Source of the DNA: a virus
Lineage: Duplodnaviria; Heunggongvirae; Uroviricota; Caudoviricetes
IMG/VR virus record: IMGVR_UViG_2718218135_000001
Location: 1 to 64,000 of that record
Reading direction: 5' to 3' (one strand)
DNA: 64,000 bases
Below, in pieces: positions 4,945 through 47,627 of this stretch (positions are counted from its first letter, which is position 1; each line of letters opens with the position of its first letter). The notes under the pieces are model-generated. The model ran no database searches and was not told the DNA's origin. It was given only the letters and a program-made list of their open reading frames with translations. Made by a program: the position numbers and the translations under genes.

Positions 4945-5545
4945 CACTATCCACTGCGGTGAGTAGCCAGCTCACCGCGTGTGAATCCAGCTCATAACCA
5001 CTGTAGCGAGTAGAACACCCTTCAGGTATGCACCCCAACCACTGTAGTGAGCAAACCCTCTGCCACGATATCAACTATCCACTGTAGTGAGTAAATTGGT
5101 GATTATCGGGGTCGCTATACACTGTAGTGAGTAAACAGGCGTTCACTGACTACAAACAACCACTATAGAGAGTGATGGAATGCCCCCTCCAGCGGATATC
5201 CACTATGGAGAGTAAATCTTCGCTGTTTTAAACGGATATCCACTCACTACAGTGGATAGAGGTCAAGTCAGCCAATTCTGCTCTTCACAGTGGATAGTCA
5301 ACAATGAGGAGAGCGACGATAACCGCTGTAGAGAGTAGACTTAACAGAGATACCCAGTGACCGCTAACCTCTCAGCCCTTGTTTTATCTATGTTTGCAAC
5401 CACTAACATTTACTTCGCGATTTGTGCGCACTGCCTACAGTGGTTATTCTTCGGTTTCTTTTACTCACTACAGTGGATATTGCATTTCCGATAAACAAAA
5501 AGGCTCACTACAGTGGATAGTGAGCCTTTTTACTCTCTACAGTGG
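4945..5545. repeat. Iteron array downstream of repA (incA-like), at least 13 copies of a ~17-19 bp repeat in both orientations
   Basis: Repeated ATCCACTGTAGTGAGTA and variants (ccactgcggtgagta, ccactatagagagtga, actcactacagtggata) spaced ~35-45 bp. Confidence 0.8.
5496..5533. terminator. hairpin terminator at the 3' end of repA
   Basis: aggctcact...agtgagcct stem flanked by an A-run and a T-run; the stem is itself built from an iteron. Confidence 0.5.
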
Positions 5546-5550
5546 TTGGG

Positions 5551-6606
5551 CTATTTGCGAGCCTTTGCCTTGCGCAGCTCTTCGAGAATCGCCAGTTCTT
5601 CCTTGCTCAACATGACCATTTCCCCGTCTTTTTCTTCAGGGGCAACATCGATAATGTCCTCCGGATCATCACCTGGCAAGATATCTTCTGGCTCTTCAGG
5701 CGTAGCCATAGATGGCGGCAGTGCCGAACGTAACTTCGGCCGTCTATAGTGGATGACGAAGTAGACCGAGCTGCCGCGTTTCACTTCAGTGTAATCGAGA
5801 TAGCCGATCTCTCGCAGCTGCTCCATCGCCTTCCTGACTGTCGCATTCTGGGTAATGGTGCGGCTGGTTAAGTTAAGTCTGGCGCGTAAGCGAGCCAATG
5901 AGATTGGCGCCGGGTCTGGTGGCAAACTTTCAATGAAGGTGTAGAGCGCCTGCGCGGATTCTTTTCTGGAGAGTTCGTTGATGGCCCGAAGTTGCAAAAG
6001 CACCTTTTTGTCGAACTGGTAAAGTTCGAAAATCTTAGGATCGGCCTTCAGTTCGACCGTGTCATTCTTGGTACTGTACTTTGCCGTCTGCACAAGGTGC
6101 GTAACGTAATACTCTTCAGAGCCTTTGCTGCGGAATGAGATGGTGTTTGTGGCGATACGACTTAGAGAGCTGTCCAGGCGCTTACGTAACTTCGCGGACG
6201 ATCTGGCTGTTGGTATGCCACAAAGTCTGACGAACTCGACGAACGGCAACGTGACGGTGTCACCAACAACCTTGTGCTTGGCGAACGCGTGGATGATGCC
6301 CACCCATGTTTTGAAATCGTTATCCATATCAAGACGAAGACCAGCAATCCTTATATCCTCGTACCCTTCGGCTTTGGCCAGAGACAGCTGTTTGAGTTCA
6401 GCGGAGGCGTCCATAGAGACCATTTGCCCCTTTCTACCCCTGGATGTCGATTTCAGCGTCGGAACGAAGAGACCAAGACGCATCAGAGCAACAGGCTGAA
6501 CTGTGTTGTTGGTGTTAGGAACTAACGTAACAACTTCGCCGGTCTTTTTGTCTGTTTCGGAAAATGCTTCGCTTATCGCAATGTTTTTATTGTCGTTTAC
6601 GCTCAT
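5551..6606 (-). CDS. repA: RepA-like iteron-binding replication initiator
   Basis: 351 aa ORF flanked on both sides by iteron arrays, the classic RepA/incC/incA arrangement of iteron plasmids such as P1; the protein itself was not matched to a family. Confidence 0.6.
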
Positions 6607-6639
6607 TCCAAATGTCTCTTTTTATTCGACGGCTTGGGT

Positions 6640-7165
6640 GCCTTTACTGATTACAGTGGATAGTAGCACCCATCACAGTGGTTATCCTACCGCCTACAGC
6701 GGTTTTTCTACTCTCCATAGTGGTTGATTTACTCTCTATAGTGGTTGTTATTCTCACTATAGTGGATATCGATAACCTCTAAAGCCATGTGGCACAACGG
6801 TTTGCAGGGGCCGGGGATCTCTTTGGGTCTTTGTGGTTCTCTTTGGTTCTAACAGGGATCTGAATTACTGGATCGAGCCTGTGTATAAAAATCAGATAAT
6901 TACAAAATCAGGCATCACTCCCCTTCTGGGGATAATGTGTGATCGAAATAAACACGCCGCAACGCAAAATTTACAATATTTCCAAGAATATCAGCCATCT
7001 GCCGCAGAAAAACAGGCTCGGAGTTATCCAGTTAAAACATTGTCTCCTACTCACTACAGTGGATACCGACTACTCTCCAGAGAGGTTGTTTTGCTCTTCA
7101 TAGCGGTTATTATGCTCTCTACAGTGGTTATTTTGCTCTCTATAGTGGATAGTAACCCCTTCTCA
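6640..7165. repeat. Iteron arrays upstream of repA (origin/incC-like) with GATC clusters
   Basis: About 7 iterons (6650-6780) and about 5 iterons (7048-7160), same family as downstream; GATC-rich blocks lie between and after them. Confidence 0.75.
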
Positions 7166-28818: not shown

Positions 28819-30168
28819 AATACTGTTTATATGTGGGTCTTCCCCGATCATGGTGGGAAGGCTCAGAACTCCATATTCAGCTTACCGTAGTGGAACATCA
28901 CTCCCAGTTTAAAGCGCTCCCGGTTTCGGTATCCCCTGGCTTTTATTCTCAGCAACCTTATCTTGCTGTTAAGTGCCTCCGCATTTCCGTTTGAGACACT
29001 GTGTCGCATCGCATTCAGGATCCCGTACAGCCTTTTTCCTATCGTTTTCGCAGCATTTTTCATCATGGGAACGTCACTGTTAGCCGCCAGCGCCAGCCAT
29101 CTCTGCCAGTCACTCCGCCTTTCCTCGCTCCATGGCCTGTTCCAGATATCCTTTGCCAGCTCTTTCAGCGCCCAGCACTGGCTCGTCAGCTTCATCTGTG
29201 CACGCAGCCACATCAGCTTTTCCTGCCGGGATTCAGTCATCCACTTATCACTGTACTGCCACAGGAAGCGGGTTCCTTTTGCCTGGCGTCGGCTTTCAAC
29301 AGGGAGGTGCGGATGTTCATTCTGACGGGTTTTATCAACTACCTCGCCCAGTTGCTTCGCCACATGGAAGCGGTCAAAGGCGATTTTCTCAACCGCGCTG
29401 GGTAAGTGGATGCGCGCTGCTCTTATATAGCCCGCGTTCATGTCCATTGAGAGCGTTTTGATAGCCAGCAACTGCCCATCAGTGAGTGTGCGAAGATAGC
29501 CGGCAAGACTCTCTGTGCCGCGATCATCCGTTAAGGCCAGCGCCCGACCATCGCGATCGGAGATCACCGTTATGTAACGATGTCCTTTTTTAAAGGCGAC
29601 CTCATCCACATTCATATGACGGGCGGATAATGGCTTTTTTATCCGGGCAAGACCTCGCTTAACTGCCCGGGTCATAATGCCGTCAACCGCATTCCAGCTG
29701 AGCTTAAGTTGCTTCCTGACAGCATCAACGGTGCTGATTTTCAGCCATGAGAGAACGAACAATTCGAACAGCAACGTATACCGGCTTCCGGGGCCAGCCC
29801 ACGGAACAGGCAACGTCTGACAGCCATGCTCCGGACACATAATTCGTGGAACATCGGCTTCAACAATAGTGGTGAACTGGCAGGTATCAAGATGGCGCCA
29901 TTTACGATGACGGTGATCGTGAACAGAACAGGATTTACCGCAGGCCGGACAGGCTAGCCGGGTGTTTTCAGCGATCTCAATAGTGACAGTAACAGAACCG
30001 GCATTTTCATCGAGAGAAAGGGACTTTACCTGCCACGGATCGGACAGGTTGAGAATATGAGCGTAGAGGGACTTTTCGTCCATGGCGGTGACCTCTGGCG
30101 ATTAAATACACCATTATCATGCCTTCAGCCACCACAACAAGGGAAGACCCTTATATGTACAGTATTGC
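28819..30168 (-). mobile_element. ISL3-family insertion sequence (apparently intact)
   Basis: Imperfect ~27 bp terminal inverted repeats (aatactgtttatatgtgggtcttcccc / gggaagacccttatatgtacagtattg) bracket one transposase gene; target-site duplication not evident by eye. Confidence 0.7.
28863..30083 (-). CDS. ISL3-family transposase
   Basis: 406 aa; N-terminal zinc-finger CPACG...H..HRHRKWRHLD and DDE-type core. Confidence 0.8.
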   Translation of the reverse strand: MDEKSLYAHILNLSDPWQVKSLSLDENAGSVTVTIEIAENTRLACPACGKSCSVHDHRHRKWRHLDTCQFTTIVEADVPRIMCPEHGCQTLPVPWAGPGSRYTLLFELFVLSWLKISTVDAVRKQLKLSWNAVDGIMTRAVKRGLARIKKPLSARHMNVDEVAFKKGHRYITVISDRDGRALALTDDRGTESLAGYLRTLTDGQLLAIKTLSMDMNAGYIRAARIHLPSAVEKIAFDRFHVAKQLGEVVDKTRQNEHPHLPVESRRQAKGTRFLWQYSDKWMTESRQEKLMWLRAQMKLTSQCWALKELAKDIWNRPWSEERRSDWQRWLALAANSDVPMMKNAAKTIGKRLYGILNAMRHSVSNGNAEALNSKIRLLRIKARGYRNRERFKLGVMFHYGKLNMEF

Positions 30169-30767: not shown

Positions 30768-31084
30768 TGCTGAAAATCACCGAATCGTATAAGACGGCGG
30801 TGATCAGCACCGCCCACGTAACGGCAGCGGATTCAGAACGGCTACCCATTGCCTGCTTCGACCCACTTACTGATCGCGGGTTGAATTGGGTACACGGTAC
30901 ACAGTACGGCTGGATTGTTCGTGCTGGAATGCGAGGGAATGACTGGAAGGAAGAACTGCGTGAGTACGGCATTTCCCAAGAGGCGATCTCCAACATACAG
31001 ACCATACTGGATGACGGCTTTGACGTGGTTCACTTCGATTGCGACGCCGAGCTGGTGGATGGGCTACCTGCATGGGAATGGTGA
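30764..31084 (+). CDS. hypothetical protein
   Basis: 106 aa, ATGA overlap with the upstream gene. Confidence 0.45.
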   Translation: MMLKITESYKTAVISTAHVTAADSERLPIACFDPLTDRGLNWVHGTQYGWIVRAGMRGNDWKEELREYGISQEAISNIQTILDDGFDVVHFDCDAELVDGLPAWEW

Positions 31085-31160
31085 TCGCCCACTCGTTGAG
31101 TAATCATGTCATATAAGCGAAGAAAATTGGTAACATAGTACCGCTTTTTAATCTGATGGA

Positions 31161-31730
31161 ATGGATGTGATGGAAACCCAGAACCAACAAACAAAACCTC
31201 TGAATAATGCTTATGCGTGGCTTCTAGCTTTACTGCCTCTCTTCTTTGGAGCACCGCCAGATGAGTATTTGAATTATGCAATAGTGATAGGTGGAGTCGC
31301 TGGACTCGGCTTTCTGGTGGCTGACAGAATGGCATTGTCTGATGCAGGGTATGAACCACCGGCCATCCTGTGGGGAGTATTTCTCCTTCCGGTCTATCTC
31401 TGGAAACGTGCCACCGTTACAAAAGGCAGTCGACTTCCTTTTATCGTAATCGTCGCGTTGCTTGCTGGTAACATCTTCATCGGTATCCCACACCAGGAAG
31501 AGGTTGCTCTTGAAGAAGCGGCTTGTCCTCTCGTAACGACCATTCTGAAAGAGAATAACGGAACCACAGCGCCGAAATGTATGAAGGTGACAATTCAGGA
31601 CAAGGTGACGGACAAGTTCTATAAAGCGACGGCTACGCTGGATAACGGCAACGACATAAACGTTACTCTGGAACTGACCGGCGAAAGAAACTTTTATGTG
31701 CGCGTTCCGGATGCCTATCTGAACAACTAA
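31161..31730 (+). CDS. membrane protein (multiple predicted TM helices)
   Basis: Hydrophobic segments AWLLALLPLFFG, AIVIGGVAGLGFLV, ILWGVFLLPVYLW, FIVIVALLAGNIFIGI; preferred over the overlapping minus-strand ORF 31230..31883. Confidence 0.45.
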   Translation: MDVMETQNQQTKPLNNAYAWLLALLPLFFGAPPDEYLNYAIVIGGVAGLGFLVADRMALSDAGYEPPAILWGVFLLPVYLWKRATVTKGSRLPFIVIVALLAGNIFIGIPHQEEVALEEAACPLVTTILKENNGTTAPKCMKVTIQDKVTDKFYKATATLDNGNDINVTLELTGERNFYVRVPDAYLNN

Positions 31731-31739
31731 CGGCTGCAA

Positions 31740-33300
31740 CTCGTTGATATTGGCGGTCACAAATTGAGGATTTCTATAAGAGTCCGTTGATCGCCACTTT
31801 CCCCACCACCCTACCCCACTCAATCCCAGGCGTGACAAGGCATTTAAGCCAATTACACCCATAAGAAAACAAATAAATAACACATCAACGTAAAGTCAAC
31901 GCTTTCCCCTGATTTGGTCTAAAAAGTTGATGTTTTCGCACGCCATCTCTTATACCCAAATCCAGCGTACCAGAATCCATCTCCCTGCGACCAAAACGTC
32001 AAAAACGACTCGTGATACCACCCAAAAACAGACACGCTCAGAAGCGCTCCCGTTGCGTTATATTGGACATCTAAACAAGTTGTTTTCAGACACAAGAAAA
32101 CAAGCTAACCACACCCACAGGAAACCCAGAGACGCCATTACCCACATTCCCAAAAACAACCAACCTCTTTATGGCAGGCTACTGAAAAGACCCACCTCTT
32201 CTTCCCAGGCTACCGGACAACCAACCTAACTTTCACAGGCAACTCGAAACATTCATACATGCGATACCCACTACACGCCATTCCCCAAACAGCGAATAAA
32301 CACCAGAACCACTGAAACTCTAACGAAGCCTGTTACCGCAAGGACTCCCTCAATCCCCAAAGACACGAAACAGAACATTCGCGGGGAAACGCCATTACTC
32401 AATACACAAATAACCACAAAAGCCTTTCACGCTCTCAAGACAAACAACTCAAATACAATAACGAAAGGAATCGCCCACCTGCCATTACTCCATACACAGA
32501 GAAGAACAATCACCAAAACAACGAGAACAACCCTGACGAAAACACAGAGAAGAACCACCTCAAGAAGAACGAAACCACATATGCCGGTAGAAAGAACAAA
32601 CCACCCATTTCACCCACAGGAATAGTCGCCGTATTGAGCGTTATCAGAGAGAAGGTTTATGCCCACATAAGAGAGAAAATTCGTGGGAGGTATAAGTGGG
32701 AAGGGAAGGAGGGGTATCGCCACTTTCTTCGTATAAATTCAAGCCATAGTTTTCATCCCCCGTAACGTCCCTATCCACCCCTTCGGTCAGCCTTCGGGCC
32801 ATCCAGGGAAAAGGCCATGTCCCTTTTCAGAAACGGGAGCGTCGCCGCAGGGAAAAGGCTGGAGGTTTTCAGGGAAACGGTGGGAATCCCGCTATACGAA
32901 CCGGGAAAAGGCTGGCTGCCGGTCGGGAAACGGGTACATCCCGGTACAGAGCGAGGGACGACTGCGGGAGCGGTGCGGGAAATCTTCGGGAATGCGCCTT
33001 GCTCTTCGCTCGCCTGAAAATCGCGAGGGAGTGTCGTTCCCTCTCGTGCAGCTGCTGAACTCCATTCTGCCAGACCATCCTCGGGTCTCAAGCGATTTCA
33101 GTAGGTTTTCGGGGAGAAGAAAATTCTGCCCACCAGCCCTGCGGCGCGCGTAGAGCAGAATATCGTAAATACTGGTTCCCGTGTCGTTCCCGGATATTCA
33201 CTGCCCAGCCTGGCTTTCACGACATAAAATCCTTTTTCGCCTTTGTCTTATTGCGACAATAACACCAACAAGTAAACAACATGTTTAGACGTTATATAAA
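31740..33300. other. ~1.5 kb ORF-poor tract: CA-rich/G-poor half followed by phased GGGAAA(A/C)GG repeats
   Basis: No convincing ORF; strong strand skew 31900-32700; GGGAAA(A/C)GG repeats 32800-33000; one AAACAAGTTGTTT copy at 32073. Confidence 0.5.
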
Positions 33301-33318
33301 CGAAGTGAGGATGAAGAG

Positions 33319-33537
33319 ATGATTAAGATGCCTGTGACGGTTGAGGTGTGGGGCGTGGATTCCCTGGCTGAGTGTCTGGATGCAGTGGGGCCGGAGTTGT
33401 ACCGCAAGTTGTGGTCGTTCGTCCCGGCAGAAGGGGAATCGCCCAAAGGGAAGGATATCTGGCACCTGCTTAGTGAAGATGAAAAGCGGGAGCTGGTGGA
33501 CGCGGTACACAGCGAGTTCCCGGACGACGAAGATTAA
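33319..33537 (+). CDS. hypothetical protein
   Basis: 72 aa acidic ORF, RBS gtgagga; motif at 33274 upstream, hairpin at ~33544-33566 downstream. Confidence 0.45.
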   Translation: MIKMPVTVEVWGVDSLAECLDAVGPELYRKLWSFVPAEGESPKGKDIWHLLSEDEKRELVDAVHSEFPDDED

Positions 33538-33676
33538 GAGTGAGACCACCAGCACGGTGGCTTTTGTCGCTATTAACCTCCGGGGCAGCGCAGCACCGTA
33601 ACGATATACTTTGTGGCCGTTTTCTTACTGGTATTGTTTACGCAATTCAGAAAACAACATGTTTAAGGATTGCTTT

Positions 33677-34006
33677 ATGTTTGCAAATATCGACATCAAC
33701 CAAATCAAGAAAATGACTCAAAAAGAGTTTGACCAGTTTTATGAGTTAGAAGGTTGGTCTTCCACGCTGATCAATTCGCGCTGGGTGCTTGAGCTGATGA
33801 CTCGTGATGATGCTCCTGCTTTGATTATTTGCGACATGGGTGAAGATGCTGACTTTATGGATATGAGCGAATTTTGTGTGGACACATACAACCGCAGCCA
33901 GAAGTACTACTTCACATGCGATAGCGAGAATGACGTGATTTCTAAGCTCTATCTTCACCTTGTCCAGCATTGGGACGTGCAGGAATTCCTTGAGTTATTC
34001 GCGTAA
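33677..34006 (+). CDS. hypothetical protein
   Basis: ATG after aagga; motif 33652-33664 upstream; hairpin 34016-34038 downstream. Confidence 0.45.
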   Translation: MFANIDINQIKKMTQKEFDQFYELEGWSSTLINSRWVLELMTRDDAPALIICDMGEDADFMDMSEFCVDTYNRSQKYYFTCDSENDVISKLYLHLVQHWDVQEFLELFA

Positions 34007-34142
34007 GCCCAACCAAAGCCAGCACCGCCTGCTGGCTTAACTTCTCTGTAGCCGCAGGGAAGAACCACCTTTAGATAATTCATGTGCCTGAGCAATATGC
34101 TTTGTAGCCGTTTTTACACTGGTATTATTTACGCCATTGAGA

Positions 34143-34155
34143 AAACAATTTGTTT
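34143..34155. promoter_or_regulatory. AAACAA-N-TTGTTT palindromic motif (representative copy)
   Basis: aaacaatttgttt 12 bp upstream of the ATG at 34167; upstream block tggtattatttacgccattgag is paralogous to the block before 33652. Confidence 0.45.
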
Positions 34156-34166
34156 ACGGAGTGGTG

Positions 34167-34478
34167 ATGAATACTTCATTGGTGCTGGGTCTTGCTGAAG
34201 GCCAGGAGAGAAAAGAAAAACCAACCTTAATGGGGCATCTCACATTGCTGGATATCGTAGCGAATGGGACTTCTATCCGTCTGTTTCGTGAAAAAGCCAT
34301 TACCTTCGACGCGGGCAATTTTACGCGCTATGTGATGGTAGTTCGTCGCCAGCGTGGAAGAGGGTGGATGTCGGTCCAGAAAATGTGGCCAGAGGACCAG
34401 CTTGAACTGGCGCTGATGGAAGCCAACCGTGTCGCCCAACAAGAGATCCAACGAGCGTCTGTTCAGGCGGTAGCTTAA
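34167..34478 (+). CDS. hypothetical protein
   Basis: ATG after ggag; 104 aa. Confidence 0.45.
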   Translation: MNTSLVLGLAEGQERKEKPTLMGHLTLLDIVANGTSIRLFREKAITFDAGNFTRYVMVVRRQRGRGWMSVQKMWPEDQLELALMEANRVAQQEIQRASVQAVA

Positions 34479-34512
34479 ACATGTGCAAGCAGTAGTTAGT
34501 CGAATGTACGAC

Positions 34513-34541
34513 AGCCCCGCCAATCCTTCGGGGCTTTTTTG
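34513..34541 (+). terminator. rho-independent terminator
   Basis: gccccg-ccaatcctt-cggggc followed by TTTTTT. Confidence 0.7.
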
Positions 34542-34599
34542 TATTGTAAGTACTTACTTATGATAATAAAATTAAAAATTAAACACTAAGGAGAGTGAA

Positions 34600-34995
34600 A
34601 TGACCGTTAAACGCGAAAATCTGACCCTGGATATGTATTATGCATCAGAGACGGAAAATGGAGACAAAGTTGCAAAAATTACAATTGTGCTACGCGATAA
34701 TACCTCCGGCGAAGAAGTTCACACCAGTACCTTAACTCGCACCGGCGAGGCCACAAAGGGGAAATATTCGGTGCGTTACCAAAGCATCAGTAATGCTTCT
34801 GACCCTTTACTGATAAAACTGGAAACTCATTTCCGTGGCGCGGATCAGACGTTGTTTGAAAATTTGATGAAAAAGGTCGATACGGTTTATACATCGAGTT
34901 TAAATACCAATAGTACCTGGATGGGACAACACGGTCTGCGAATAATCTCCGGCGAAAAGATCGACACCATTGTCCCTGAAAGCGTATTCGCTTAA
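34600..34995 (+). CDS. hypothetical protein
   Basis: 131 aa, RBS aaggagag. Confidence 0.5.
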   Translation: MTVKRENLTLDMYYASETENGDKVAKITIVLRDNTSGEEVHTSTLTRTGEATKGKYSVRYQSISNASDPLLIKLETHFRGADQTLFENLMKKVDTVYTSSLNTNSTWMGQHGLRIISGEKIDTIVPESVFA

Positions 34996-35003
34996 TCCTC
35001 TTT

Positions 35004-35033
35004 GAATGGCGCGTAAACCGCGCCATTTTCTTA
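35004..35033 (+). terminator. rho-independent terminator
   Basis: aatggcgcg-taaac-cgcgccatt followed by ttctt. Confidence 0.6.
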
Positions 35034-35112
35034 TGCCCGATAACAATTTGTTTTCTGCCTTATCTGATTTGTGAAAATGATTTCACTGAAGCAACTTAAT
35101 AAGGAAACCATC

Positions 35113-35487
35113 ATGGGACTTGATATCTATATCGAGACGCAGCCTAAAAACGATCTGAATAACGAGGCATCCAGAAAGCAGGTTGCTTACTTCCGTAAGT
35201 TCAATGCGCTCGTTGGGTGGATGGAGCGCAACGTAGGTGAAGTCGAAAATTGTGAGCTTTTAGAATTAACGATGAATGACATTTGTTTTCTGAAGGCTCA
35301 TTTGATGCACATAAACGAAAGTAATTGCGAAGAGTACTTGCCTACCCAGGAAGGTTTTTTCTTCGGCAGTCAGGAGTACGATGAAGGTTACTGGCATGAC
35401 GTGGATAAGCTGAAAAAACTTGTGGAAGACCTGATCAGGAACCACGACTTTCACAATAACAGACTGACGTTCCGTGCCTGGTGGTAA
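35113..35487 (+). CDS. hypothetical protein
   Basis: ATG after aaggaaacc; motif at 35042 upstream. Confidence 0.45.
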   Translation: MGLDIYIETQPKNDLNNEASRKQVAYFRKFNALVGWMERNVGEVENCELLELTMNDICFLKAHLMHINESNCEEYLPTQEGFFFGSQEYDEGYWHDVDKLKKLVEDLIRNHDFHNNRLTFRAWW

Positions 35488-35837
35488 ATATGGGCGATTT
35501 CAAGAAACGCCTGAAGGAAAGAGCCGAGATGGTCAGAAATCAAAACGCATCTTCTGTCATCAGATACGCAAGGCAGTTTAGTCGCAACAACAAATCAGTT
35601 GAGGAAAAGATCCTTAGCGCAATCGGGCGATAATTATTAAGGCCACCAGCAGTGGTGGCCTTAAATGACCATCCTGTTTCCCGCAGGCTAAAAACACCAA
35701 CCTCTTACCTCCAGGCAACCGACAAACCCACCTGTTCCCGTCCGGCTACCGCAACTTTCCACTTTGACGCCTTATTCGTACAACGATAATTAACACCAAC
35801 AAGAAAACAATTTGTTATTTACGATAAGGAATTAATC

Positions 35838-36320
35838 ATGAATTTTATCGCTACTGTAAACGCACCCGCACATGGCAATATCGCTGTAACGTTCTCTGAC
35901 ATTGAAAAACGAGTACTTGGTGCATGGCGCGACAATGAGACGGTAGAACTGTCAGCACAAGAAAAATGCATTATTGCACGCGACATCATTGGCAATCGTC
36001 GTTACTCGCGGGTATTTGAGAAAGCATATGTGGTAAATTCTGGATTCGGAACGTTCGTCTTTCCGGTGCGCTCCGGGCGATTCTGCCAGTCCAAGCTGAT
36101 TGAGTTCGCTACGCAGATTTCTGTCTGGATTAAAACTCAATCGTCGTTCAAATTTTCCGACGATGAAGCAGTATCGCAGGGGATGCGGATCGCCAACAAT
36201 GCAATAAAATGCAAAAACATTACGTATGCCGCTGGCGTTGACACATGGAAACTGTTTTGCGCTAACTTTATGCTGAATGTATACGCAAGCAACCGCATCC
36301 ACATCCTTGATGGCGTGTAA
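35838..36320 (+). CDS. hypothetical protein
   Basis: 160 aa, RBS aaggaa; motif at 35805 preceded by taacaccaacaag; hairpin 36327-36352 downstream. Confidence 0.5.
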   Translation: MNFIATVNAPAHGNIAVTFSDIEKRVLGAWRDNETVELSAQEKCIIARDIIGNRRYSRVFEKAYVVNSGFGTFVFPVRSGRFCQSKLIEFATQISVWIKTQSSFKFSDDEAVSQGMRIANNAIKCKNITYAAGVDTWKLFCANFMLNVYASNRIHILDGV

Positions 36321-36867
36321 CTGAGAAGAGGGCCAGAAACGGCCCTTTCTCTATAGCCACCAGCTGCCGCAGGGAAATTTTCAGAAACGGCGAGGAACGC
36401 ATTCATGAGCCGAAGGGAAACGACCATGAAATTTTCTGGAAACGGCGGGGGTCGCCTTTATGTAGAAAACTGAGCGGGAGAAACCCGGAATCGCGCCAGA
36501 AATTGCATAGCGGCGCTGGGTAGTTGCTGGTGGGCTTTCAGCCCCTGGGCCATCCAGATAGCTTTCGCTATGTGATTATGTGAATCCGTGGGTAAATCAC
36601 TGTAAGCGCGTACACGTTGCCCAACGTGGCAATCATATGCGAGCGGATACAAAACAACACAAAGAGCCGATCCGCGCCGACAAATAAACGCGGATCACAT
36701 AGCAAGACTAAAAGCCAATGATTAACCATACTCTATAGCGCAATATAACGCGTTTTAAGCGCGTTAATGTGTTAAGTAATGGGTATGTACTGACAAGGAT
36801 ATAAAAGCGCGTCTATGGCGTTATTTTGGTGCTTATTTTTATGTTGTTGGAGTGAGTTAAAGACAAT

Positions 36868-37216
36868 AAAAAACGCGCCATCATTGGCGCGTTATGGTGG
36901 GAGTATTGGAAACGAAAAAAGCGCCCATAGTGGGCGCTCGATTTTATTTGTGTAAACTGATTTCAAATCCTATTTCTACAAACGCTTTCAACATTAAAAA
37001 GATATCAGCGTCATTCACGTCTGCTTTTTTTCGCTCCTGGTCGTTCAATAAGTCAATTTTGCGCGTTGTTTCATTTATAAACTCGACTGCGCGCCCAGCG
37101 ATCCCAGCGATCCCAGCGATGCGATTAACATAATATTCATTATGGACGTTAACGCCAGCGATAAGAACAAACATGATTAAGCTCCTTAAAACTAGCGCCC
37201 ATAGTGGGCGCTATAT
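36868..37216. repeat. Hairpin cluster: two identical GCGCCCATAGTGGGCGC palindromes, a third GC hairpin and a 9 bp tandem repeat
   Basis: acgcgccatcattggcgcgt (~36870-36892); gcgcccatagtgggcgc at ~36922-36940 and ~37197-37215; (agcgatccc) x3 at ~37095-37125. Confidence 0.6.
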
Positions 37217-38189: not shown

Positions 38190-38714
38190 TTAAAACGGTA
38201 AAATCCGTTCGACCCAATCGAAGAGAACTATCGTTCGTCCGCGCTCGCCAACTCTCATTGCGACCTGACAGGCATCAACGCCTAACGAACACCCCTCAAT
38301 TTCACGGCCATCCGCCATGTAGACCCTTATAGACTTTTGCGCCTCATGAGCTTGACGACAAATTTTGAAGAAATCGCGGCGAGATGGCCGATTGTCCACA
38401 TAGTCAGGGTGTACAGTGAGCCTACCTGTAAACATCTTGTCCACTTCGACAGGTGTAATTGTTTCTATGGTGCTAACTCGCTCCAATGGAAGACGAACAC
38501 GATGTTCTTTACTTCCTATAACGGGAGAAAGATCTAGCTTATTGCGTGCGGTAAGCAGACCAATAACGTAAAGACAAAACGTCTGACCATCATCGATCGT
38601 GACCCTTACAGGTATATTCCTTGCCCGTAGGAACTGCAAACTAAACTCCACGTTAGAGTAGTCGCGGGGCCAGACCTCTGCTGGGATGCCGTATGTAATG
38701 TCTGTGATCGTCAT
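38190..38714 (-). CDS. hypothetical protein (low-GC island)
   Basis: 174 aa; start overlaps the upstream stop; aaccggacttagccggtt hairpin downstream. Confidence 0.5.
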   Translation of the reverse strand: MTITDITYGIPAEVWPRDYSNVEFSLQFLRARNIPVRVTIDDGQTFCLYVIGLLTARNKLDLSPVIGSKEHRVRLPLERVSTIETITPVEVDKMFTGRLTVHPDYVDNRPSRRDFFKICRQAHEAQKSIRVYMADGREIEGCSLGVDACQVAMRVGERGRTIVLFDWVERILPF

Positions 38715-42109: not shown

Positions 42110-42808
42110 ATGGATTGTATCAAAAATATGGATGTGAAAATTACGATTCTACAGGTGGAAGTCGCGAACCTGCGTCCGAACCCCTGGAATACCAACTCCG
42201 TTGGGGCGCAAAACTTCGAAAAACTGAAAGGTTCCATCGAAAAGTTGGGCTTTTTTAAGCCAATTCTGGCGCGAGAGCTGGACGGCGGCATTTTTGAGAT
42301 TCTCGGTGGCGAACATCGCTGGCGTGCCGCGATGGAGCAGGGCATTTCAACGGTTCCCGTAATGTCGGTGGGAAAAATTAACGACCTGGTGGCCAAACAG
42401 ATGTCTCTCGTCGATAACGAGCGCTACGGCGAAGACGATCAGATCGCTTTGCAACGCTTAATCGAAGAAATTCAGTCTGAAATTGACTACCGGTTGTCTG
42501 ATATCGCCCCGTATGACGACGAAATGGCGGCAACGCTCGCCAAAGCATCCGTTATCGATCTTGAAGCGCTGGAAGCGCTCTCCCGCGGCGATGACGAGCC
42601 GGTCGGTGAGGACAAACGCGAGAAAATCGAGCGAGTCGGTGCTGAACACCAGACGATGCGCTTCAAGGTGACGTTCGATGCGTCAGATCGCGTCGCCGAT
42701 ACCATCAAAACCATCATCAAAGAGCAGGGAATCAATACCGGTAACGAAATGGAGAACGCCGGGGAAGCCTTGGTGTGGCTGGTCGACTACTACAAGGAGC
42801 GTATGTAA
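42110..42808 (+). CDS. ParB N-terminal-domain (ParB/sulfiredoxin-like) protein
   Basis: LRPNPWNTN and ILGGEHRWRAA motifs of the ParB nuclease-like fold; acidic C-terminal half. Confidence 0.55.
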   Translation: MDCIKNMDVKITILQVEVANLRPNPWNTNSVGAQNFEKLKGSIEKLGFFKPILARELDGGIFEILGGEHRWRAAMEQGISTVPVMSVGKINDLVAKQMSLVDNERYGEDDQIALQRLIEEIQSEIDYRLSDIAPYDDEMAATLAKASVIDLEALEALSRGDDEPVGEDKREKIERVGAEHQTMRFKVTFDASDRVADTIKTIIKEQGINTGNEMENAGEALVWLVDYYKERM

Positions 42809-43476
42809 TGACCAAGAACTTTGAAATCGTATATCGAAACCCGGCAGAACTTATCCCGTATGAGATGAACGCCAAAAAACATGACGAACAGCAGATCCAC
42901 GACCTGGCGGCTGCCATCAAAAAGCGCGGTTTTGACCAGCCGATCACGGTCGACAAGCACGACGTCATCATTACTGGTCACGGTCGTCGCGAGGCGGCAC
43001 TTCTGGCTGGTCTGGAGCGTGTGCCTGTCATCGTTCGCGACGATCTGAGCGAAGAAGAAGTGAAGGCGAAGCGTCTTGAAGACAACCGCCTGGCCAGTAT
43101 TGACTACGACGCCATCAAATTGCAGCAGGAACTGGAGTCCCTGGTGCTGGGTGACGTTGAGGTCTTTGGTTTTGAAGAGCGAGAGCTGAACGTGCTTGTT
43201 GGCAGCATGACCGAAGAGATGGAAACAGGCTCTCTGGTGCTCGATCTGGGTGAAGAGACGGAACGCCAGAAAGAAGAGCACACCGAGATCAGTCGCGAAG
43301 TGGCCTCTGAAGAAGTCCGAGTCATCGACGTATTGGGCTTTAAAACGCTCCCTGCTGGCTCTGCCATTGTGGTTGGGGATTTGCTTGCCCACATGGAAGA
43401 AATTACGGGAGAAAGCGGGGTAGACGCTTTCGTGGCGTATGCGGAGAAAGTTTCCTCTGGGGAGCTGGCTGCATGA
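42808..43476 (+). CDS. ParB N-terminal-domain protein (second paralogue)
   Basis: ITGHGRREAA motif; start overlaps the upstream stop (TAATG). Confidence 0.5.
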   Translation: MTKNFEIVYRNPAELIPYEMNAKKHDEQQIHDLAAAIKKRGFDQPITVDKHDVIITGHGRREAALLAGLERVPVIVRDDLSEEEVKAKRLEDNRLASIDYDAIKLQQELESLVLGDVEVFGFEERELNVLVGSMTEEMETGSLVLDLGEETERQKEEHTEISREVASEEVRVIDVLGFKTLPAGSAIVVGDLLAHMEEITGESGVDAFVAYAEKVSSGELAA

Positions 43477-44111
43477 GCAAATACACCATCAACGTATCGT
43501 TTCAGACCCGCGTGAACAAAACCACGCGCACGCTGGAGATTGCCGAATCGTTCGGTCTTGGCCTGGACGAAAAAGAGTGGACGCTTTACGACAATCTGGA
43601 GCTGGAAGTGAAGCAGGGCGATGTGGTGTACATCACCGGCCAATCCGGTTCCGGTAAATCCGTTGTGCTGCGCGAGCTGCAACGCCAGATGAAGGATGAA
43701 GGGCTTTCTGTAGCCTCCATCGATGACTTTGCCTTCGACAATGAGGTTAACGTCATTGACCAGCTGGGCAAAACCACCAGCGAAGCGCTGGGGCTGCTGT
43801 CTATGGCCGGATTGAATGACGCCTATCTCTTTGTGCGTAAGCCATTCGAGATGTCTGACGGCCAGAAATACCGTCTCAAGATCGCCAAGCTGATCGAGTC
43901 CGGCGCGAAAGTCTGGGCTGCCGACGAATTTGGCGCTGTTCTCGACCGTGTAACCGCCCAGGTTGTGGCGTCGAACCTCCAGCGTGCCGCCCGTAAGGTT
44001 GGTGCGACGGTAATGGTGGCGACGACCCACGAAGACCTGAAGAACGCGCTGCGCCCGGATATGCAGATCACCAAGCACTACAAAGAACGCGTGAAGGTGG
44101 AATATGCCTGA
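43473..44111 (+). CDS. compact ABC-type ATPase
   Basis: Walker A GQSGSGKS, signature-like SDGQKYRLKIA, Walker B VWAADEFGAVLD, H-loop-like TTHE; 212 aa. Confidence 0.55.
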   Translation: MSKYTINVSFQTRVNKTTRTLEIAESFGLGLDEKEWTLYDNLELEVKQGDVVYITGQSGSGKSVVLRELQRQMKDEGLSVASIDDFAFDNEVNVIDQLGKTTSEALGLLSMAGLNDAYLFVRKPFEMSDGQKYRLKIAKLIESGAKVWAADEFGAVLDRVTAQVVASNLQRAARKVGATVMVATTHEDLKNALRPDMQITKHYKERVKVEYA

Positions 44112-44358
44112 TTTGAAGATCGTAGAGCTGAAGCCATCGAAAGAGGCTGACAACAACAACGTTGAAGTCATCCGCCTGCTGGAAGAAGCACTCCAGTACG
44201 CCAGAGAAGGCAAAAGCCAGAGCCTGGCACTGCTGATGATCAACAACGACGGCAGTGTGCTGGATTGCTGGCATAACGGTGGGCGTCCATACGTCATGGT
44301 TGGGGCGATAGAATCGCTTCGCCTGGACTTCATCAATGCCAATATCGAGCGTAGGTGA
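44104..44358 (+). CDS. hypothetical protein
   Basis: 84 aa ORF overlapping both neighbours. Confidence 0.4.
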   Translation: MPDLKIVELKPSKEADNNNVEVIRLLEEALQYAREGKSQSLALLMINNDGSVLDCWHNGGRPYVMVGAIESLRLDFINANIERR

Positions 44359-45254
44359 TCGACATGACAGGCATCATCATCAAACGCTACCGCCCGGAAG
44401 AGTTCCCGCGTCATCTGGACTTTCTGGAGCGTATGACCGTTACCAAAGGCACGGTTGAAGACTGGCACGCGCTGAAGTCGCTGCACTACAAGACGGATGG
44501 TAAGCCGTTTGCGCCAACGTATTATCGCTGCGAACTGGACGACCGGCTGGTGGGCGTCGTGGTTATGGCTTACCCGAAACTGCTGCTGGCGCCTCGCCAT
44601 CGCATGTTTCCTAAGCTGAAGCCAACCACCAATACCACCGTGGCCAACCAGTATTGGGGGCGGTACGTGAACAACAACTTTGCGGTGATCAGCCGTTCCG
44701 TTGTGGACACTCAGTACCGCGGTGTCGGCGTCTCCTATCGAATGATTAACCTGGTTAGCAGGATGCATAACCGGCCAATCATCGAGATTCAGTCGTCCAT
44801 GAGCAAATACAACCCGTTCGCCATGAAAGCAGGGTTCCAGTTCATACGTCCGGAGCGTCCGAAGAGCTATGAGAGTGCGTTGCGTGTTTTCCAGCGCCAT
44901 TTTCGCTCCGACCCTGGAGACAACGAAGCGATCGTCAAAGAGCTGTTCGCCATGAGTGAGTCTCGCCGTCGTCGTGCGCTGCGCGATCTGGTCGCGGACT
45001 ACCACAAGAACAGTTCCCTGGCCAAAGCCGGGCGTAATCGTGGCACGACGATTCAGGATATTGCCGACAGTCTGGTGGACGAGGCCAGCATCGTGAAGTT
45101 GCTCAAGGATATTCACAACCTGAGCTTCACGTCTCCGCTGTATGGCGTGTATCGAAACCCGGACTTCGGTCGTCAGTTGCCTGACACGCTGCCACTGCTG
45201 GCATTCGATAAGCAGCCTTTGAATAAACCTCTTGAAATTGCATTACCGGCATAA
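44355..45254 (+). CDS. GNAT-like acetyltransferase-fold protein (putative)
   Basis: Motif A-like YRGVGVSYRMINLV and motif B-like NPFAMKAGFQF; start may be GTG 44355 or ATG 44364. Confidence 0.4.
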   Translation: MIDMTGIIIKRYRPEEFPRHLDFLERMTVTKGTVEDWHALKSLHYKTDGKPFAPTYYRCELDDRLVGVVVMAYPKLLLAPRHRMFPKLKPTTNTTVANQYWGRYVNNNFAVISRSVVDTQYRGVGVSYRMINLVSRMHNRPIIEIQSSMSKYNPFAMKAGFQFIRPERPKSYESALRVFQRHFRSDPGDNEAIVKELFAMSESRRRRALRDLVADYHKNSSLAKAGRNRGTTIQDIADSLVDEASIVKLLKDIHNLSFTSPLYGVYRNPDFGRQLPDTLPLLAFDKQPLNKPLEIALPA

Positions 45255-45726: not shown

Positions 45727-46368
45727 ATGACTGTAGAAAAAGACGAGAGCAAAACTCGCCTGACACCAGCTGAGTGGGCAGAAGCCGAAGCGAAATGGAC
45801 TTCTGGCGAATACACACTCTCCAGGCTGGAGGAAGAGTACGGCATTCGTCGTGAAACGCTCTCCAGACATTTCAAAAAGCGTGGATTAGAGAAAGGCGCG
45901 GACTCCGTTGGGAAGATGGTGCGCGAGTCGCTCAAATCCGACGCAGAGCTGCGTGCGAAGGCGCGTGCAGAGAAAATCGAAGAGCGCCGGACTCGTTACG
46001 ACGATTGGGCGTTCGCACTCGGTCGTATGGTGATGCATGAGGTGGCCATAGCCAAGAAGGACGGCAGGCCACTGGCAGCCATCGAAGATGACCTGAAGAG
46101 TCTCCAGCGTGCCAGCGGCACACTTGCTAAGTGCTTCGAAATATCGTCGAAAGCGCTCGGTATGGATCGCGTGGAGAACGAGGACGACGAAATCCCGAAC
46201 CTGGTATTTGGCGAACTTACGCCTTCCCAGGTGGCGCAGCTGCGTAAGGAAGATGATGAGCCGGATCTGATTGATGACGATCTGCTTGAGTCACTCGAAG
46301 AGGAAGCACTGAGCGAAGCTGAGGGCGATTCTGAAGCGTCTGGTGATGAAAGTGATGGGAGCGTCTGA
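45727..46368 (+). CDS. terminase small subunit (putative)
   Basis: Position immediately before TerL; HTH-like N-terminus, acidic C-terminus; two AAACAA-N-TTGTTT motifs upstream. Confidence 0.5.
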   Translation: MTVEKDESKTRLTPAEWAEAEAKWTSGEYTLSRLEEEYGIRRETLSRHFKKRGLEKGADSVGKMVRESLKSDAELRAKARAEKIEERRTRYDDWAFALGRMVMHEVAIAKKDGRPLAAIEDDLKSLQRASGTLAKCFEISSKALGMDRVENEDDEIPNLVFGELTPSQVAQLRKEDDEPDLIDDDLLESLEEEALSEAEGDSEASGDESDGSV

Positions 46369-46370
46369 CT

Positions 46371-47627
46371 ATGGCCATCCCGTCGTCTCTGAGTCTCGTA
46401 CAGCTGCATTCTGGGCAGATGCAAGTCTTCCAGTCGCCACATCGTTTCAAAGTGGTGTGTGCGGGTCGACGCTGGGGTAAATCCCGGTTGTCGATCTCCA
46501 CCATCATCCGCGCGGCAGCCAAAGAGAAGAAGCAACGTGTCTGGTATGTCGCACCGACTTACCAGATGGCTCGCCAGATCTTGTGGGATGACCTGCAGGA
46601 AGTTCTGCCGCGCAAATGGGTTCGTAAGAAAAACGACACCACGATGACCATCGTGCTGAAGAACGGCTCTGAAATCGCGCTGAAAGGTGCGGATAAGCCC
46701 GATACGCTTCGTGGTGTGGCACTGCACTTTGTGGTGCTCGATGAATTTCAGGATATGAAGCCTGACACCTGGTACAAGGTACTGCGTCCGACACTGTCCT
46801 CCACCCGTGGCGGTGCGCTGATCATCGGTACGCCAAAAGGCTTCTCCGAGTTCCACAAGCTGTGGACTATCGGTCAGAACAAAGATTTGCAACGCAAGGG
46901 GCAGTGGAAGAGCTGGCAGTTCGTTACGGCCGATTCTCCGTTCGTACCGAGCGCGGAAATCGAAGCAGCGAAGAACGATATGGACCCTAAATCGTTCGCA
47001 CAGGAATACCTGGCCAGCTTCGAAAACATGTCCGGACGCGTTTACTACCCGTTCGACCGCAATGTGCATGTGAAGCCACTCCAGTTCAATCCGAAACTGC
47101 CGATCTGGGTTGGTCAGGACTTCAACATCGACCCTATGTCATCGGTCATCCTGCAACCGCAGCCAAATGGTGAACTGTGGGCTGTGGACGAATTGGTGTT
47201 GTTCTCTTCTAACACGGCTGAAGTGTGTGACGAGCTGGAGCGTCGATACTGGCGCTGGAAATCTCAGGTCACTATCTTTCCTGACCCGGCAGGTGCGTAT
47301 CGCCAGCACGCACGCGGCGAATCTGACGTCGACATCTTCAAAGAGAAAGGTTTCCTTCGAGTCGATTATCCGAAGAAGCACCCGCCGATCGCAGACCGTG
47401 TTAACGCAGTGAACCGCATGTTGATGAGTGCCTCGGGCGAAACCCGGTTGTACATCGATCCGAAGTGCAAACACCTCATCGACTCGCTGGAGAAGGTGAT
47501 CTACAAGCCAGGCTCACGCGATATGGATAAGACTGGCGGCATCGAACACAGTGCGGATGCGTTGGGTTATCCGGTTCATCGTAGGTATCCGGTGAAAAAT
47601 CGTGTTATTCTTGGTGGATCTAGATAG
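46371..47627 (+). CDS. terminase large subunit
   Basis: Walker A VVCAGRRWGKS, Walker B HFVVLDEFQDM, C-terminal RNaseH-like acidic motifs (GQDFNID, VDEL, FPDPAG). Confidence 0.75.
   Translation: MAIPSSLSLVQLHSGQMQVFQSPHRFKVVCAGRRWGKSRLSISTIIRAAAKEKKQRVWYVAPTYQMARQILWDDLQEVLPRKWVRKKNDTTMTIVLKNGSEIALKGADKPDTLRGVALHFVVLDEFQDMKPDTWYKVLRPTLSSTRGGALIIGTPKGFSEFHKLWTIGQNKDLQRKGQWKSWQFVTADSPFVPSAEIEAAKNDMDPKSFAQEYLASFENMSGRVYYPFDRNVHVKPLQFNPKLPIWVGQDFNIDPMSSVILQPQPNGELWAVDELVLFSSNTAEVCDELERRYWRWKSQVTIFPDPAGAYRQHARGESDVDIFKEKGFLRVDYPKKHPPIADRVNAVNRMLMSASGETRLYIDPKCKHLIDSLEKVIYKPGSRDMDKTGGIEHSADALGYPVHRRYPVKNRVILGGSR

Follow-up and report, generated by a model that had tools for sequence, protein, structure and literature searches.

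What is the function of a gene-free tract of about 1.6 kb that lies between the variable cargo genes and the early genes of a phage-plasmid? Here, we address this question for positions 1 to 64,000 of the IMG/VR record IMGVR_UViG_2718218135_000001 (this whole stretch of 64,000 nucleotides is referred to as the window), the source of which is an SSU5-type phage-plasmid of Escherichia coli. We show that the tract is non-coding, under purifying selection, phased and duplicated in its architecture, and unexpressed. Very probably, it acts in cis as DNA and is neither a gene nor a folded RNA. By analogy with known systems, we tentatively favour the reading that the whole tract is an origin or control region of phage-mode (lytic) replication, which would be silent and insulated in the prophage (probability about 0.35). 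SSU5-type phage-plasmids are common in clinical Enterobacteriaceae and carry resistance and virulence cargo; knowledge of what binds the tract would offer a lever on replication or induction across the family, and the 840-bp A+C-rich strand would lend itself to the study of designed transcription barriers that depend on direction. We found no description of the tract in the searchable literature, and a 2026 preprint on heteroresistance concerns another phage-plasmid family. Its components resemble known kinds, i.e., iteron arrays and Rho-loading regions; their combination, their size and the extreme composition of one strand are not familiar to us from other phages.

The tract is widespread in this family of elements. 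At high stringency it has matches in 459 plasmid records and at low stringency in 857, the latter from at least 10 genera, and among phages it matches 12 records, all SSU5-like and including Salmonella phage SSU5 and Escherichia phage Cyrano. It is present at full length in 685 plasmids and in 241 of 5,426 complete E. coli genomes (4.5%), where it is plasmid-borne every time. For alignments, we used 38 non-redundant representatives that are less than 97% alike; the whole element was compared with a complete 115-kb relative (NZ_CP101235, reconstructed), in which the tract lies at 86805-88324. Among the 38 representatives, the tract shows higher conservation than the coding DNA to its right. When the window is compared with the SSU5, Enterobacter and Klebsiella clades, the tract is 66-80% identical, and in the same comparisons the four-fold degenerate sites of a downstream gene for a protein of 160 amino acids (aa) are 32-38% identical, i.e., close to saturation. 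The left edge of conservation lies ∼10 nt past the stop codon of whichever cargo gene precedes, and the tract forms a sharp conservation boundary where variable cargo joins the early genes. It is also the largest conserved non-coding region found in an annotated relative of the element.

The earlier note on this DNA had described a 1.5-kb tract poor in open reading frames, and this description was borne out. The longest open frames within 31740-33300 have 100-106 codons, because the G/T-poor strand has few stop codons, and in a six-frame comparison their frame and position vary among the 38 homologues. Pairwise indels that are not a multiple of three make up 88 of 88 in 31740-32100, 299 of 379 in 32100-32640 and 326 of 453 in 32640-33300. 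Period-3 variation is weak and unconvincing (0.25-4.1 compared to 3.5 in a short coding control), and the Prokaryotic Genome Annotation Pipeline (PGAP) annotates no gene in the tract of RefSeq plasmids. On the grounds of the missing conserved frame, the frame-breaking indels and the weak period-3 signal, we reject a protein-coding gene. A decayed paralogue of the 160-aa gene is likewise rejected, as blastn and tblastx comparisons of the tract with the downstream DNA return short repeats only.

Nor do the data support a structured RNA. Rfam gave no match at the gathering score in the whole window or, even at E≤5, in 31500-36700. Single-sequence folding of both strands yielded minimum free energy z-scores of −1.8 to +1.6, i.e., no signal. 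RNAalifold in sliding 200-nt windows with column-shuffle controls gave consensus energies of ∼−1 to 0 kcal/mol per 200 nt on the plus strand in 32135-32634 and of 0 on both strands in 32735-33334. The only consensus helix is the inverted repeat GGCGGTCA/TGATCGCC at the left boundary, the arms of which are invariant, and a pair-by-pair count found no compensatory change. A sponge for CsrA was rejected because the even sites of the repeat array described below do not keep GGA and conserved hairpins are absent.

Public RNA-sequencing data for LF82 carrying the related prophage Cyrano, covering five conditions (supplementary table S1, PMC9928086), bear on expression. On the scale used, log2(FPKM+5), where FPKM is fragments per kilobase per million mapped fragments, a value of 2.32 corresponds to zero FPKM. 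CYRAN_103, an open reading frame called in the A+C-rich half 110 nt into the tract, is at 2.32-4.27 in the five conditions, and CYRAN_104, which spans the array, is at 2.6-4.7; the gene immediately upstream of the tract (CYRAN_102) reaches 9.2 and the first gene after it (CYRAN_105) reaches 7.8 (PMC9928086). Neighbouring early genes are up 30-fold in some of the five conditions with the tract still at or near the floor (PMC9928086). Expression thus drops at least 80-fold at the tract boundary in Cyrano, a drop of which RNA decay remains a possible cause. Because the tract is at the floor between expressed genes, it is silent in the prophage; upstream transcription apparently does not cross it, and the early genes appear to use their own promoter. 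The alternative offered in the earlier note, a long non-coding RNA, therefore finds no support as a structured or lysogen-expressed RNA, whether in Rfam, in folding or in the Cyrano data.

The most distinctive feature of the right half is an array of six direct repeats (Table 1). The motif GGGAAAMGG occurs six times in the 64 kb compared to 0.84 times expected, a number reached in none of 100 shuffles, and five of the six matches fall in 128 bp (32806-32933). The earlier note had placed GGGAAA(A/C)GG units at multiples of roughly 21 bp; the repeats are real, but the spacing is exactly 22 bp with one 31-bp step (22, 22, 22, 31 and 22 bp, with the degenerate site CAGAAACGG at 32829 included). 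The sites alternate between a CAGGGAAAAGGCTGG type and a TTTTCAGGGAAACGG type. They share a conserved core of ∼9 bp (G-R-R-A-A-M-G-G), odd and even sites differ in their conserved flanks, and the spacers vary. Position-matrix scores are 17-19 bits for five of the six sites and 10.3 for the degenerate one (hit at 32826). In the 38 homologues, neighbouring sites are exactly 22 bp apart in 90 of 139 cases, and nearly all other spacings are 31, 42-44 or 53 bp; the 22-bp spacing is retained in every intact homologue, and homologues seemingly without the array have apparent insertion-sequence insertions at that place. The 22- and 31-bp steps equal two and three helical turns and, therefore, all sites lie on one face of the helix. 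Such phasing is meaningful for a protein multimer on double-stranded DNA and meaningless for an RNA. The general idea of a multi-site protein-binding array, as proposed in the earlier note, is well supported by sequence comparison, because the core and the exact spacing are retained across variable spacers and neither strand has a conserved RNA structure; the more specific proposal of a partition centromere obtained no positive support and is taken up below.

Table 1. Features of the tract and of its downstream counterpart (positions are those of the window)
Feature	Position	Strand	Details
Whole conserved non-coding tract	31731-33318	none	Left: variable cargo gene 31161-31730; right: first small early gene 33319-33537
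Invariant left-boundary block	31744-31796	+	Promoter-like TTGATA-16 bp-GAGGAT (TTGACA in most relatives)
Inverted repeat around promoter-like site	31752-31759 / 31788-31795		Arms GGCGGTCA / TGATCGCC
A+C-rich, G/T-poor strand	31790-32630	+	70% A+C
Conserved block	31855-31960		Half-site AAGAAAACAA
Conserved block	32040-32110		CGTTGCGTT ... AAACAAGTTGTTT (palindrome 32073-32085) ... AAGAAAACAA
GCCATTAC modules	32134-32509	+	At 32134, 32277 (GCCATTCC), 32391 and 32481
Three tandem ∼30-bp units	32153-32249	+	ACCNACCT-N(8-13)-CAGGCWAC, spacing 31 and 30 bp
Three overlapping copies of ACACAGAGAAGAAC...	32494-32577	+	24 bp apart; most A-rich, T-poor part of the tract
Conserved block	32691-32770	+	TATAAGTGGGAAGGGAAGGAGGGG-ATCGCCAC-...-CCCCCGTAAC; switch of GC skew, C-rich to G-rich
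Array of six direct repeats	32804-32935	+	Core starts 32806, 32828, 32850, 32872, 32903, 32925
Conserved block with Chi octamer	33123-33140	-	CCACCAGC on plus strand, 33130-33137
Promoter-like GACAAT and palindrome	33240-33290	+	AAACAACATGTTT (33274-33286); belongs to first early gene
Second set of three ∼30-bp units	35662-35755	+	Directly upstream of promoter of 160-aa gene
160-aa basic protein gene	35838-36320	+	phrog_1641, pI (isoelectric point) 9.2; conserved, bracketed by both repeat families
Second, weaker array	36370-36447	+	Orientation as main array; CAGGGAAAT, TTCAGAAACGG, AGGGAAACGA, TTTTCTGGAAACGG

The array does not stand alone. A similar cluster noted earlier at 36360-36470 is real, yet it is weaker than the main array: matrix hits are found at 36380 (14.1 bits) and 36435 (11.4 bits), and two degenerate sites at 36370 and 36413 are recognized by reading of the sequence only. 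The core spacings read in this way, 11, 33 and 21 bp, are again whole helical turns. A block at 32150-32250 had also been said to recur near 35690-35770, and we confirm this recurrence as three ∼30-bp units in each place, which are 64-72% alike. The order of 30-bp units followed by array thus occurs twice, and each of the 41 distinct homologous loci with sufficient flanking sequence keeps it; the duplicated units are 1.5-4.2 kb apart. In the 115-kb relative, clusters of the array motif are confined to the two array loci, with two further isolated copies, and the pattern of the ∼30-bp units was found nowhere else. A scan of species-representative genomes for the array returned chance single hits and a true array only in an SSU5-like contig of Kluyvera. 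Among viral contigs encoding the 160-aa protein, the 30-bp repeat lies at most 300 bp upstream of the gene in 73 of 74 and a phased pair at most 260 bp downstream in 72 of 74. This protein is restricted to the SSU5-type family and has no Pfam match; its structural model is confident (mean predicted local distance difference test score of 86.6) and has no significant structural neighbour. To judge from this arrangement, the duplicated arrays and 30-bp repeats suggest pairing or looping between the two loci, with the partner protein possibly encoded nearby.

The left half of the tract is distinguished by composition. The earlier note had called it CA-rich and G-poor, correctly so: base frequencies are A.376, C.322, G.136 and T.166, compared to.266/.236/.256/.242 in the window. 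Every 78-nt window of 31778-32635 has a C/G ratio of 1.3-4.3, and A+C is kept at 64-72% in all clades, even where identity is ∼66%. In the 115-kb relative, this half has the strongest keto/amino skew of any 800-bp window, ∼7 standard deviations from the mean. The right half is G-rich on the plus strand, and the complement of 32792-33025 has a C/G ratio of ∼1.4-1.5. The A+C-rich half also contains short repeats and blocks that resemble control sites. The gccattactc repeats seen previously at 32391 and 32481 are present and belong to a family of three to four GCCATTAC copies. At the left boundary, the promoter-like TTGACA-16-GAGGAT is kept in 35 of 38 homologues. The motif GTTGAY/RTCAAC, which we group with the conserved block at 31855-31960, occurs in five copies (31743, 31786, 31884, 31895 and 31926). 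Sigma-70-like sites are scarce in 31000-37200 (2 found compared to 9.7 expected); few promoters are expected in the A+C-rich half because one strand is poor in T and the other is poor in A.

From this architecture, we infer protein binding, Rho loading and origin function of the tract. In the favoured reading of a lytic origin or control region, the main array would, in the manner of iterons, accommodate a cooperative multimer of a single sequence-specific protein, and the second array together with the duplicated 30-bp repeats would allow pairing of both loci. A polymerase entering the A+C-rich half from the cargo genes would make an untranslated, C-rich, G-poor and structure-free RNA, and this half may act as a one-way barrier because such an incoming RNA is a substrate for Rho loading. 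RNA made leftward from the early-gene side would also be C-rich, because the right half is G-rich on the plus strand, and the barrier may thus be two-sided. Promoter-like and operator-like blocks, all of them conserved, are placed at the left edge and mid-tract, and one contains the palindrome AAACAAnTTGTTT. The whole would then correspond to an iteron origin that works together with a remote enhancer, comparable to P4 ori-crr or lambda ori. We count in favour of an origin that no lytic origin is known for SSU5-type elements, although they encode a replisome of their own (DnaE, a DnaB-like helicase, a primase, a ligase and a gp32-like protein), that the iterons of the plasmid replicon are unrelated to the array, and that direct repeats at 22 bp plus a remote second cluster are a hallmark of iteron origins and of P4 ori-crr.

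Several observations weigh against an origin. There is no enrichment of DnaA boxes, integration host factor (IHF) cores, GATC clusters or A+T-rich windows; the tract contains one near-DnaA box, and one IHF core match lies at its left edge (31737). An unwinding element was not found, and the top A+T-rich 40-bp window (75%) is 900 bp away. No adjacent initiator is recognizable: the neighbours lack Pfam matches, the sole Rep_3 protein, encoded at 5551-6606, has unrelated iterons, and the 160-aa candidate is without known relatives. Moreover, 840 bp far exceeds what a Rho site needs. A more elaborate version, which we regard as doubtful, is a composite cis element in which the 160-aa phrog_1641 product, possibly of an unseen fold, would build a lytic origin or nucleoprotein switch on the array, shielded by a one-way Rho trap. 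Jointly with this, and with the same doubt, the 840-bp A+C-rich strand, nearly palindrome-free, would be purpose-built as this trap; RNA made inward from either side would be C-rich, and RNA made outward would be G-rich and Rho-resistant.

Comparison with known systems brings out both likenesses and differences. The iteron arrays of theta-replicating plasmids and phages (P1 oriR/incA, R6K, pSC101 and lambda ori) are similar in having several direct repeats spaced ∼22 bp (two helical turns) in non-coding DNA, and P1 incA and the distant R6K iterons also have a second cluster kilobases away. However, the core in the tract is only ∼9 bp, there is no adjacent Rep-family gene, A+T-rich unwinding element or cluster of DnaA boxes, and the element's own Rep_3 replicon uses other iterons. 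The ori and crr (cis replication region) of satellite phage P4 are alike in that two clusters of one short direct repeat lie a few kilobases apart in one phage-plasmid genome; by contrast, the P4 repeats are bound by the alpha primase-helicase encoded between them, while here small proteins without assigned function are encoded between the clusters. Repressor-controlled promoters beside an origin, as in the favoured reading, would be reminiscent of P1 oriL and lambda ori. Rho utilization (rut) regions, and the silencing of horizontally acquired DNA through Rho, are similar in that the transcript entering the tract would be C-rich, G-poor, unstructured and untranslated, and in that expression falls off abruptly at the boundary. 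An unstructured, untranslated RNA with more C than G over at least 70-80 nt, as is characteristic of rut sites, is specified by 31778-32635; the tract is, however, ten times longer than known sites and contains conserved blocks and internal repeats. The injection-stop region of phage T5 is a repeat-rich non-coding stretch of ∼1.5 kb beside the pre-early genes. It is like the tract a large, repeat-rich region without open reading frames beside small early genes in a large siphovirus, but the two have no known sequence similarity and there is no evidence of two-step injection in SSU5-type phages.

The silence of the tract between expressed genes and its location at the junction of variable cargo and early genes are also what one would expect if the tract were only a boundary or silencer, which we consider a possible, if tentative, alternative. 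The arrays and 30-bp repeats would then bind a prophage-maintenance protein that loops or roadblocks the early-gene cluster and has no role in replication, and the skewed halves would halt transcription entering from both sides because the inward RNA is C-rich. A C/G ratio above 1 for inward RNA in both halves and the operator-type palindrome within the tract fit this proposal. However, the main array is ∼390 bp from the nearest gene promoter, and the gap that holds the second array is convergent and rich in terminators, an unusual place for operators. Furthermore, in some relatives the duplicated units are only 1.5 kb apart with apparently no early genes between them, leaving little to bracket.

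A partition centromere, in which the arrays would be bound by the small partner of a ParA-like ATPase or by a ParB_N protein to segregate the plasmid prophage, is unlikely. Centromeres of types Ib, II and III are typically arrays of direct repeats in helical phase, which may form two clusters, and the tract does have an array of repeated sites that resembles R1 parC, pB171 parC1/parC2 and the tubC site of TubZRC in its phased direct repeats and, in some cases, two clusters. These centromeres, however, lie next to their par operon, of which they are the operator, and no partition gene is near the tract. A search for ParA/ParB genes outside the window, as the earlier note had advised, succeeded: NZ_CP101235 encodes a ParA-like protein with a small partner, but the gene (46143-46811) is ∼40 kb from the tract. 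No obvious direct-repeat centromere lies beside this gene, which leaves room for a site elsewhere; the par locus does, however, have long palindromic structures of its own. The ParB_N gene of the window (42110-42808) is 9 kb off and lies beside the terminase genes. Finally, a centromere would leave the 840-bp skewed half and the promoter/operator blocks without a role. As to the par locus itself, the ParA-like protein is of type Ib, its partner has 117 aa, and the candidate partition cis sites are a perfect inverted repeat with 14-bp arms downstream (45746-45780) and a ∼240-bp hyphenated palindrome upstream (46821-47060).

It is improbable that the tract encodes an unstructured regulatory RNA made only in lytic growth, i.e., a long C/A-rich transcript starting at ∼31744-31771 or ∼32050-32075 that would either be a sponge that soaks up Rho, Hfq or G/U-rich small RNAs or serve as a leader under Rho control. 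The promoter-like site conserved in nearly all homologues, the consensus folding energy near zero across 600 nt and a composition conserved beyond sequence are all consistent with such an RNA. Against it stand the missing reads in five conditions, including those with early genes up 30-fold, and the strict 22-bp phasing, which an RNA would not require.

Very improbable is a pac site at which an oligomer of the small terminase subunit would bind the phased repeats. The pac sites of SPP1 and P1 consist of short repeats in phase, and the orientation of four Chi octamers immediately to the right is such that they would stop RecBCD entering from a DNA end within the tract. However, pac sites are normally found within the small-terminase gene or next to it, whereas the putative genes for the small and large terminase subunits (45727-47627) are ∼12.4 kb from the tract. 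The local Chi bias, 6 to 2, is not significant and was rejected as a sign of a DNA end in the tract. Altogether, six Chi octamers are present within 3.4 kb right of the tract (CCACCAGC at 33130, 33546, 35643 and 36357; GCTGGTGG at 33492 and 36526); three of the four co-oriented ones are in terminator-like hairpins, and over the whole element Chi orientation is balanced (16 versus 15).

That the tract has no function of its own, being either decayed DNA or a homology arm that frequent recombination at the cargo-zone edge keeps similar, is scarcely credible: its mosaic nature and the G+T-rich complement, the kind of strand preferred by RecA, would agree with this, but motif, spacing, length and composition are kept across clades in which synonymous sites are saturated. 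The mosaic is evident in 32220-32460, which is 84-91% identical to one lineage (e.g., NZ_CP020118) and only 54-65% identical to a lineage with a flank identity of 91-99%; recombination has, therefore, occurred inside the tract, and 32220-32460 derives from another lineage than the rest. In relatives, the variable cargo zone directly left of the tract includes metG, an apbC/minD-like gene, a dha operon, IS26, IS1 and IS3; in the window, a gene for an ISL3-family transposase (28863-30083) lies 1.6 kb upstream of the tract.

The gene content around the tract is as follows. From the left, the window contains the plasmid replicon, plus-strand genes for DNA metabolism and cargo, and the tract. The gene preceding the tract reads into it in each of the 14 annotated relatives. 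To the right follow a cluster of small plus-strand genes (33319-36320), a minus-strand block with genes for a FljA-like repressor and a helicase and, beyond this block, the ParB_N gene, the terminase genes and the structural genes. PHROGs and Pfam, applied to 20 neighbour proteins, named the FljA-like repressor, the helicase, the ParB_N protein, the terminase and RepA, and nothing else. The replicon (4998-7140) has a P1-like organization with repA on the minus strand and iterons of ∼19 bp (TATCCACTGTAGTGAG), which have ∼21-bp spacing on one side of repA and ∼40-bp spacing in both orientations on the other. Because these iterons are unrelated to the array, titration of the plasmid RepA by the array was rejected. 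Small early proteins encoded in 33319-35487 (72, 109 and 124 aa) are very acidic (pI 4.2-4.9) and have no Pfam match; high acidity of early phage proteins is typical of DNA-mimic or anti-defence proteins.

The 13-bp palindrome AAACAAnTTGTTT occurs 11 times in the window (23518, 24716, 28438, 28754, 32074, 33275, 33653, 34144, 35042, 35806 and 45675), usually 10-25 nt ahead of a start codon and after a GATAAT-like −10 element, and in NZ_CP101235 it is also found ahead of the parA-like, DnaB-helicase and terminase operons. From its placement, it looks like an element-wide operator or a control site in 5' untranslated regions, and the FljA-like repressor (38190-38714, minus strand, PF03614) is a candidate for its partner. 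Directly upstream of the putative small terminase gene, 42110-45254 encodes the ParB_N protein, an ABC/SMC-like ATPase and a third protein, which PHROGs names as an ABC-transporter ATP-binding subunit. Finally, three perfect tandem copies of CCCAGCGAT are present at 37094-37120 within an open reading frame of 76 aa (36944-37174, minus strand).

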